Shown here piece after piece: positions 38,742 through 40,870 of a stretch of DNA of 64,000 bases. Location: the NCBI RefSeq assembly GCF_044704955.1, contig NC_091991.1, positions 166,036,001-166,100,000 on the forward strand. The letters are read 5' to 3'. The notes below the pieces were generated by a model. That model was not told the origin of the DNA. It worked only from the letters and a program-made list of their open reading frames with translations, and made no database searches. The position numbers and the translations under genes are program-made. Within the stretch, counting starts at the first letter, position 1, and each line of letters starts with the position of its first letter. The DNA comes from Pristiophorus japonicus. Lineage: Eukaryota.

Positions 38742-39236
38742 GGTTCCTTCTCCTCCTCCTGCAGCTGGCCTCCTCTCTCCACTTGTGCAGGACGCACCGG
38801 CCATGATTACTCATGATGGAGCATAGTGACCAGTCCAGATTGCAGAATTGTGCTTTCATTGTCAGCAGGTGATTGAATCAGATGGGACATCACAACCTAA
38901 CCTGTGCTCAATTGAAATCAGCAGCAGGTACTGCTTGCCGGGATCATCAGATAGCAATCAGGAGTTGGAACCCTCCCTAACCCAGGGGTACTGATTCTAG
39001 TGCTGCTGCGACTCTAGTTGCGACAAGCTATGCTTGGTATAGACTGTATGGATTGAACCTGGAACCTTCCTGGACTTTATAGCCAGCTATTTATTATGTA
39101 AATCATCACAGAAGCAGACAGTAAATGTTAGCAAATCCAGGCTAATTACTGCTTTCTGAACACAGGTCACTAATTGTTGCTTACTGCAGGTTCAATACTT
39201 CATCCATTCTATTGTATCTGCGGCTATAATGCTGCA

Positions 39237-40870
39237 CTGTGACTCCGGGAGGAACTCCTCAGCCACGGGAAGAAGACGGTTGAGGAGGACTCTAGCGACA
39301 ACTTTCCCAGGGCTGATAGCAGGGAGATTCCTCTGTAGTTTTTTTTTTTGGAAATTCGTAGCCAATCGTTCCAATTCTTTGTCAAATCACAAACGCCAGA
39401 GGTCACCTTGCACATGCCAAGGATCACTCTGCGCCAATGCCCTTAGCCAAAAGGCCTAGAGCCACTGCACCGTTCCTGGAAGTACTGCAATACCAGGTTC
39501 GTGCCATGGAGGTGGATGGGTCAGGTCCCCCACACACCTCCGTGGAGGTGGATGGGTCAACCCACCCCACCCACCTCCTGTTTGCAAAAATGCAAGCATA
39601 TACCTTCCTGACCAGGGAGAAACCACCCGGAGGTCATGGTGGCTGGTCAGGTTAGTTATGCATGATCTTAGCCAAAAGGCCGAGAAGCGACTTGTCCCCT
39701 TTTTTAATGATGGTCACAATCACTGCATCTCTGAGATCTCCCGGCGTGCTCTCCTCCCTCCAGCTGAGGGAGATGAGGTTGTGTATTCACGCCATCAGTG
39801 CCTCTCCGTCATACTTCAATGCCTCAGCAGGGATTCCGTCTGCACTCATAGCCTTGTTGTTTTTAAGCTGTCTTATGGCTTTTTCTACCTCGTGCAGTGT
39901 TTGGGTCTCACTGAGGTGGTGGTGGGTAGCATGCTGCGGGATGGAGTCGAGAACACTCGAGTCCCTCTCGATTAAGGAGATCTTCGAAGTGCTCCTTCCA
40001 GCGGGCCATGACTGCCTCAGTGTCCTTGATGAGTGTTTCCCCGTTCTTGGCCAGCAGTGGGGTGGGGCCTTGGGTGTTTGGCCTGTAGGTGGCCTTGACT
40101 GCATCATGGTTGTCAGCCAGCTGCTGTTTCTCCTGTGCTTTCTCCAGTGCAGCCTTCAGCCACCTGAGAAAAAAAGTGTTTCAAGACCAGGCCCTCAAAA
40201 CTGCCACCAAGCTCATGGTCTACAGGGCTGTAGTAATACCTGCCCTCCTGTATGGCTCAGAGACATGGACCATGTACAGTAGACATCTCAAGTTGTTGGA
40301 GAAATATCACCAACGATGTCTCTGCAAGATTCTACAAATCCCCTGGGAGGACAGGCGCACCAACATCAGCGCCCTTGTTCAGGCTAACATCCCCAGCTTT
40401 GAAGCACTGACCACACTCGATCAGCTCTGCTGGGCAGGCCACATAGTCCGCATGCCAGACACGAGACTCCCAAAGCAAGTGTTCTACTCGGAGCTCCTTC
40501 ACGGAAGACGAGCCAAAGGTGGGCAGCAGAAACGCTACAAGGACACTCTCAAAGTCTCCCTGATAAAGTGCAACATCCTCACTGACACCTGGGAGTCCCT
40601 GGCCCAAGTCTGCCCTAATTGGAGGAAGTGCATCCGAGAGGGCGCTGAGCACCTCGAGTCTCAACGCAGAGAGCATGCAGAAATCAAGCAGGCAGGGGAA
40701 AGAGCGTGCGGCAAACCAGTCCCACCCACCCCTTCCCTCAATGACTATCTGTCCCACCTGTGACAGAGTCTGTGGCTCTCGTATTGGACTGTTCAGCCAC
40801 CAAAGAATTCACTTCAGGAGAGGAAGCAAGTCTTCCTCGATTCCGAGGGACTGCCTATGATGATGATGAT
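39237..40870. mobile_element. RTE LINE insertion with inverted 5' segment (minus ~39234-40144, plus ~40143-40870)
   Basis: 11-bp TSD ATAATGCTGCA at 39226-39236 and 40869-40879 brackets both arms. Confidence 0.85.
39339..39690 (-). mobile_element. snRNA-derived (U2/U1 mosaic) poly(A) retroposon, SINEU-like
   Basis: 28/28 match to vertebrate U2 nt 2-29 (39663-39690); U1-like segment 39591-39659; 32/33 match to the U2 3' end (39466-39498); second U2 5' piece (39442-39460); A11 tail; interrupts RTE coding sequence. Confidence 0.85.

Follow-up and report, generated by a model that had tools for sequence, protein, structure and literature searches.

According to the published account of Kojima (2015), no SINEU, a short retroposon headed by pieces of U1 and U2 RNA, was found outside crocodilians (PMC4494074). 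How these elements are transcribed is left open in the texts of Kojima 2015 and 2018, since the promoters of U1 and U2 lie outside the RNA (PMC4494074, PMC5786205). The partner of the crocodilian elements is described as Tx1-Mar, a Mariner-targeting LINE that is related to Keno (PMC4494074). Keno itself is described as a LINE of U2 genes (PMC6136364, PMC4640811). Here, we analysed a snRNA-derived element in a stretch of 64,000 nucleotides from the shark Pristiophorus japonicus (contig NC_091991.1, positions 166,036,001 to 166,100,000), hereafter referred to as the window, and searched 5.9 Gb of genome for its relatives. The element belongs to a retroposon family that is very young and dispersed and whose copies end in poly(A). 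Copies of this family also lie inside U2 genes, at the Keno site, and this is the main point, which a preliminary description of the window had missed.

The element is a mosaic of 352 nt, and all its pieces lie where the preliminary description had placed them (Table 1). The host's own U1, U2, U4 and U6 genes served as the comparison set, with shuffled sequences as controls. The U2 head, the stem-loop IV region and the second U2 5' piece each outscore 500 of 500 shuffles against host U2. Head and second piece were correctly recognised as U2. Also present as described are the Sm-site-like ATTTTTG, which aligns with the position of the U2 Sm site, the duplicated stem-loop III unit, a duplication of 36 nt, and the tail of about 90 nt with its A11. 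For the U2 3' end, the match to stem-loop IV stands, and the identity given earlier as 32/33 becomes 32/34 with host U2. The U1-derived piece is weak in the window copy, its score being matched by 1 of 500 shuffles in one test and by 13 of 2000 in another. It is clear in subfamily C, in which 45 of 55 columns are those of host U1 nt 3-57 (0/2000 shuffles). This U1 part had been drawn as far as a TTGCA; U1 nt 3-57 can be retained, as a borderline case in this copy, and the extension to TTGCA is doubtful. In sister copies, U1 nt ~33-47 occurs a second time in this stretch, fused to the Sm-type site.

Table 1 Features of the element and of its flanks, in positions of the window.
Feature	Position	Strand	Basis
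Whole element, 352 nt	39339-39690	minus	all pieces at the place claimed earlier
U2 head, U2 nt 2-29, stem-loop I	39663..39690	-	28/28 identical to host U2; 0/500 shuffles
Decayed U2 nt 30-37; branch-point pairing region altered; end at about the Keno nick position	39655..39662	-	alignment with host U2 and sister subfamilies; Keno copy after head nt 37 in array subfamily B
U1-derived piece, U1 nt 3-57, eroded in the window's subfamily	39607..39656	-	13/2000 shuffles for window copy; subfamily C 45/55, 0/2000
Putative Sm-type site A-U5-G, at the place of the U2 Sm site	39585..39591	-	cmscan alignment and subfamily alignment
Tandem-duplicated U2 stem-loop III, predicted single long GC-rich hairpin	39507..39580	-	TRF period 36 x 2; 5' truncation hot spot at its 5' base
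U2 stem-loop IV region, U2 nt 153-186	39465..39498	-	32/34 identical to host U2
Second U2 5' piece, U2 nt 7-25	39442..39460	-	18/19 identical; 0/500 shuffles
Family tail, grown by internal duplication from the tail of an older family	39350..39441	-	12-nt word identical to host U6
Poly(A), 11 nt	39339..39349	-	direct reading
3' flank: interrupted LINE coding sequence, presumably RTE-type	39230..39338	-	see text for the RTE label
5' flank: same interrupted LINE fragment; 10 nt of target lost at junction	39691..40160	-	comparison with an uninterrupted copy

Rfam profiles of U1 and U2 had been proposed as a check, and they differ in outcome. The U2 profile matches over 39460-39691 with 59.5 bits (E 7e-11) and is the sole Rfam match above cut-off in the window, while the U1 profile gave no match to the window copy. 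Rows for Prion_pknot and mir-2188 fall below their cut-offs and were rejected. Because the window copy passes the Rfam U2 cut-off, thousands of copies will be mis-annotated as U2 genes. The branch-point pairing region and stem II of functional U2 are absent, and the U1 piece stands in their place. GTAGTA, which had been reported as absent, is indeed missing from the window copy, but it is intact in subfamily D (224 exact matches). The element has internal U runs and no head from a Pol III RNA with an internal promoter, and in this respect it is not a classical SINE. Its RNA is predicted to be well folded (z -6.9), chiefly through the doubled stem-loop III, which has a predicted energy of -56.5 kcal/mol, compared with -19.4 for the older single copy. 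For a U6 origin of the tail, the evidence is divided: the 12-nt identity beats 500 of 500 shuffles, but the whole-tail alignment is not significant (10/500), and the U6-like word arose by point changes from older tails. Complementarity of the tail to U4 was rejected (41/500 shuffles for the old tail, nothing for the young one).

The element interrupts the coding sequence of a LINE, which we take to be of the RTE type from the earlier note and from a peptide motif. In an uninterrupted copy of this LINE (n=1), 14 nt separate the two flanks; 10 nt were lost at the insertion, 2+2 nt are ambiguous and there is no target site duplication (TSD), in agreement with the loss of about 10 bp read earlier from the window. 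The window copy is an exception in lacking a TSD, as TSDs are found in most copies. The LINE fragment around the element changes strand near 40160 (39230-40160 on the minus strand, 40089-40763 on the plus strand), either by an inversion or because two fragments lie back to back. Elsewhere in the window, segment 44182-45994 is a long G/C-rich tandem repeat with spurious open frames on both strands. A Gypsy fragment of the window has only two protein matches, both of them shark proteins with 65-67% identity, in keeping with a chondrichthyan host.

A 31-nt word from the tail has 2,381 exact matches in the genome, compared with 0 for a control. The 40 best other copies, those scored out of 1,441 candidates, are 97-99% identical to the window element, and the family alignment consists of 41 copies. 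Words specific to subfamilies B and D have 210 and 224 matches, respectively, those of D lying largely inside the 2,381. Junctions and diagnostic subfamily changes are identical across thousands of copies. The earlier suggestion of an amplifying family instead of a one-off pseudogene is thus borne out, and the single genomic copy that would have spoken against it is not what the genome holds. By copies times length, the family covers well under 0.1% of the genome. One copy lies inside a coding sequence that we take, from its peptide, to resemble histone H2B. Young insertions may serve as polymorphic markers.

Ends and targets were described in a sample of 100 copies, the first tail matches by position on contig C1. 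TSDs, counted when at least 5 non-A-anchored bases were present, occur in 55 of 100 copies and in 2 of 96 mismatched controls, with a median of 13 nt. Of 49 sites, 47 have C or T immediately in front of the TSD, A being excluded by the method, and 43 have A as the first base of the TSD, which gives Y|A, a loose form of the U2 site. Twenty-one of the 100 copies are in tandem with another copy. The 5' end falls in the first 20 nt in 56 copies, between there and the Sm-type site in 5, within 1-20 nt past this site in 30 and later in 9, one of these last being a copy with a single stem-loop III that really starts earlier. The hot spot past the Sm-type site could be described as the footprint of an Sm ring that stops reverse transcription. 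However, it is alike in copies with A or with C before the U run (6/20 vs 18/55), and an older family, which has a canonical Sm site and an ordinary stem-loop III, shows it in only 2 of 40 copies (Fisher p 0.0014). The hot spot coincides with the 5' base of the long predicted hairpin of stem-loop III. For these three reasons, the hairpin is more likely than the Sm ring to determine the 5' ends, either by refolding after copying or by trimming of the RNA up to the stem. The RNA may still bind Sm or U2B'' proteins, as had been suggested earlier, but the truncation pattern does not support an Sm footprint.

The host has two types of U2 genes with unrelated flanks. One is a uniform tandem unit of ~770 nt, whose spacer contains (GTT)n/(GAT)n; genes of the other, on contig C9, lie far apart. 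The head of subfamily D corresponds to U2 nt 1-38 and ends at the Keno site; therefore, A runs directly before U2 nt 39 were searched. Array stretches, which were chosen around insertions, contain 81 intact units, 17 units with the element alone, 11 with the Keno LINE, 1 with Keno and the element, and 2 that are otherwise altered. A genome-wide pattern found 17 family copies behind the upstream sequence of the main U2 type and 1 behind that of the second type; its 2 other matches, of A/C type, are ordinary dispersed copies. The resident copies, 18 in total, are inserted at the Keno site, before U2 nt 38-191, and belong to the youngest sister subfamily, B. Such a unit is composed of the U2 upstream sequence, U2 1-28 as the head, the B body, a poly(A) of variable length and U2 38-191, the last being 100% identical to host U2. 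Among the element units scored, 15 of 16 have 120 upstream nt that match an intact unit exactly, and the same is true for 10 of 12 Keno heads and for 75 of the 81 intact units. Furthermore, one C-type copy precedes U2 38-191. Among the dispersed B copies, eight are within 0-1 base of a copy that resides in a U2 gene.

The mosaic anatomy of the family, its thousands of dispersed poly(A) copies with TSDs, its residence in U2 genes and the intact LINE at the same sites are best explained by a family that a Keno-type Tx1 LINE probably copies and whose RNA probably comes from the U2-resident copies, through the U2 promoter. The nick made by the Keno endonuclease would fall between nt 37 and 38 in U2 genes and, outside these genes, at looser Y|A sites. 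By insertion into a U2 gene, a copy would acquire U2 nt 1 to 28-38 as its head, and we propose that Pol II would for this reason start at U2 +1. Transcription would continue across the genomic poly(A) and probably reach the 3' end of U2. Keno ORF2 would prime on the A tract, so that a shared 3' tail would be unnecessary. Scattered copies, being without a promoter, would mostly be dead. A new subfamily, its U2 head renewed, would arise each time that a truncated or altered copy reached a U2 gene; the U1 pieces would stem from template jumps. The regenerated target would be struck again later, which would yield tandem trains that run from young to old. Judged from their sequences, the U2-resident copies are probably the sources, with transcription from U2 +1. 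A wider reading, which we hold tentatively and with somewhat less than even confidence, is that of a SINE class parasitising the U2 array: the LINE would drop copies into U2 genes, these would give a capped, snRNA-like Pol II transcript that might be handled as a snRNP through its Sm site and stem-loop IV, thousands of promoterless copies would result, and each landing in U2 would supply a fresh head and a promoter. If this reading is true, SINEU would have originated a second time, independently and in a process that is still active; the reading would also explain in general how SINEs headed by snRNA get transcribed and why U2 heads are gained again and again.

It is also conceivable, though unlikely, that Keno moves the family while its copies in U2 genes are dead ends spread by array turnover, the RNA coming from other sources with an unrelated upstream or internal promoter. 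Copies of A or C are never found behind U2 upstream sequence with the genome-wide pattern, whose reach ends short of D; as only subfamily B is found there, the pattern does not show where the window's own subfamily comes from. The variant that is most common in the array, carried by 15 of 17 units, is absent from the 12 dispersed B copies with a readable diagnostic arm (7 + 5), and most array copies may therefore owe their spread to turnover of the array instead of retrotransposition. Both absences could result from array turnover or from assembly collapse. The main U2 array has, upstream, no PSE or octamer like those before the host U1, U4 and U6 genes, and no octamer is present in the 300 nt upstream of either U2 type; promoter activity of the main array is assumed, because its U2 units are intact and uniform. 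The 5' region of the LINE has an octamer word at +59, like one ~205 nt upstream of U1 genes, which makes internal signals possible, and flanking promoters are proposed for crocodilian SINEU-2 in the text of Kojima 2015 (PMC4494074). All this would suit dead ends. However, full-length copies end at U2 +1/+2: none of the 15 copies that start there carries more than 1 base of U2 upstream sequence, and no common 5' extension was seen among 56 near-full-length copies. The near identity of dispersed B copies to a resident one and the U2 head of subfamily D, with its end at the Keno site, likewise argue for U2-resident sources, and Pol III would stop at the internal U runs, an argument made in PMC4494074.

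The LINE that occupies the same site comprises an ORF1 with a CCHC knuckle and an ORF2 with an APE endonuclease, RT and zf-RVT. This is the two-ORF plan of Tx1 elements, and a named Tx1 protein is found among its relatives at 45%. No sequence named Keno is present among the 120 matches listed. The LINE is inserted 37 nt into U2 genes, and downstream of its 3' end lies the target that PMC6136364 quotes for Keno. In the array of contig C19, all 15 LINE copies (15/15) have an open ORF2 frame of 1,147 aa and are 99.1-99.8% identical to the copy on contig C1003. In this array (~69.62-69.73 Mb), 16 of the 17 units read are interrupted, and four of the LINEs are tandem second copies in the LINE's own head. 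The LINE has a U2-like head of its own and inserts there after nt 37, which produces the tandems; it has also inserted once after nt 37 of a B copy. On contig C14, outside the main arrays, U2 38-191 and its 3' flank lie behind a Keno 3' fragment, with three Keno ends in 12 kb, which may be a case of 3' transduction or a small displaced array.

Beyond U2, the LINE is widely dispersed, with 222 genome matches to a word of its 3' UTR. Its first 30 3' ends are all dispersed; immediately behind 7 of them lies a family copy, and 1 further end has a family copy in front. Both LINE and family are inserted, antisense to a Gypsy element, at the same fixed base of its RNase H region, and 4 of 100 unbiased copies lie at this site by a strict pattern. 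Further recurrent targets of the family were seen in at least three other repeats. The Tx1 LINE that had been raised as a possible mobiliser is thus likely, by the shared U2 nick and the shared dispersed targets, and we consider it very probable that the Keno-type LINE moves the family. A search for a Tx1 or L1 element sharing tail or target had been proposed; the target site is indeed common to both, but the tail has no homology to the Keno 3' UTR (183/500 shuffles score as well). This lack, the loose Y|A targets of dispersed copies and a survey whose LINE families were Keno-type only leave some room for another LINE, an L1 or a different Tx1, as the main mobiliser of the dispersed copies, with Keno merely sharing loose target tastes. 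The identical U2 nick of element and Keno, the Keno ends that adjoin family copies in 8 of 30 cases, and the intact and uniform state of Keno make this very improbable.

Older forms of the family survive in the genome, in agreement with the stepwise assembly proposed earlier. In the first of these, a U2 that is nearly complete but for a small deletion is joined to U2 2-30 and a short tail. Next are forms with U2-U1 and one stem-loop III, and then those with a doubled stem-loop III, which comprise subfamilies C, A, D and B; in D, a truncated body carries U2 1-38 at its front. An older SINEU-3-like family, with the near-full U2 and its small deletion, the second U2 5' piece and the short tail (383 exact tail matches), keeps the Keno site and is struck there both by Keno and by the young family. 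Single copies carry a newly added U2 10-47 piece or a host U1 piece in front, and these fresh additions indicate that head addition goes on. Among 25 trains, all 13 that have two different age classes begin at the 5' end with the younger one, in the order B, A, D, C, old. This order is matched by nearest-neighbour distances of 0.002, 0.004, 0.005, 0.007 and 0.010 except for a swap of A and D, which is a near tie, in a train and distance sample that is enriched for A and D and has four B copies (n=4). As the trains run from young to old, 5' to 3', sites were struck again over time, and the age order disfavours the formation of tandems in a single event.

Since the precursors lead to the U2 and U1 of the host genome itself, the family probably has an origin separate from that of crocodilian SINEU, as read from these sequences. 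True kinship with crocodilian SINEU, by old descent or horizontal transfer, would account for the similar plans, SINEU-2 being described as U1 followed by U2, SINEU-3 as a deleted U2 with a short unique tail, and the proposed crocodilian partner as grouping with Keno (PMC4494074). We give it only a slim chance, in view of the full in-genome precursor series back to host U2 and of a U1 piece that is host U1 over 17 consecutive bases. Least credible are independent chimeric snRNA pseudogenes or a working family of variant snRNA genes: all the pieces are known from cellular RNAs, single copies do gain fresh U1 or U2 sequence and the stem-loops are kept, but the junctions and diagnostic changes common to thousands of copies, the poly(A), TSDs and 5' truncations, and the loss of the branch-point pairing region in most subfamilies argue against both, and the independent-chimera version is already contradicted by the family evidence.

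What is new here is that U2-resident SINE copies and an intact partner LINE offer a concrete route for SINEU transcription, together with a readable series of precursors from U2 gene to mosaic in one genome. The SINEU-like class is also extended beyond crocodilians. Its origin there is probably separate, and this suggests that such SINEs arise from U2-targeting LINEs wherever the latter are present. In the literature covered, which included the available text of PMC5381603 and PMC5499810 and lay outside subscription journals, Repbase Reports and Dfam, no snRNA-derived SINE was found in cartilaginous fish.

The shark family has the structure of a SINEU: a U1/U2-derived head, a length below 500 nt, poly(A), multiple copies, a TSD or target deletion, a target preference common with a Tx1 LINE and repeated 5' addition of U1/U2 pieces. 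In the published description of crocodilian SINEU-1, -2 and -3, the likeness covers the U1/U2 heads, the length below 500 nt, poly(A), TSDs or target deletions and internal U runs, and extends to repeated addition of snRNA pieces, tandem copies around a TSD, the lack of a tail shared with a LINE, a Keno-related Tx1 partner and a preference for sites in other repeats (PMC4494074). By the same description, the shark family is set apart by its non-crocodilian host, its own precursor series, the second internal U2 piece and the doubled stem-loop III. Copies in U2 genes are a feature that is not reported in PMC4494074, as far as that description extends. Furthermore, its partner is an intact U2-targeting LINE instead of Tx1-Mar, and much of the family is very young. 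A preference for Mariner-N4_AMi is not seen; judged from target identities, the recurrent targets are U2 genes, the Gypsy site and other repeats.

The partner LINE is like Keno in being an APE LINE before U2 nt 38/39 with the same 3' target; it differs from Keno as described in PMC6136364 and PMC4640811 in being also widely dispersed and in having a non-autonomous companion at the same site. Utopia is described as using the same U2 insertion site, with tandem insertion in U2 genes, but it is a LINE with a restriction-like endonuclease (PMC4640811) and differs from the partner identified in the shark. The nearest precedent for life inside the target gene is provided by the R2 and R2/R1 SIDEs, as presented by Eickbush and Eickbush 2012 (PMC3414825). 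Like the shark family, these are non-autonomous and live in the multicopy RNA gene that their LINE targets; they depend on its transcript, as is proposed here for the shark family, with snRNA added at 5' ends by template jumps. In the same account (PMC3414825), however, SIDEs, which reside in 28S rDNA, are deletion derivatives of the LINE with a ribozyme, whereas the shark family is made of snRNA pieces, has no LINE sequence and is found genome-wide.
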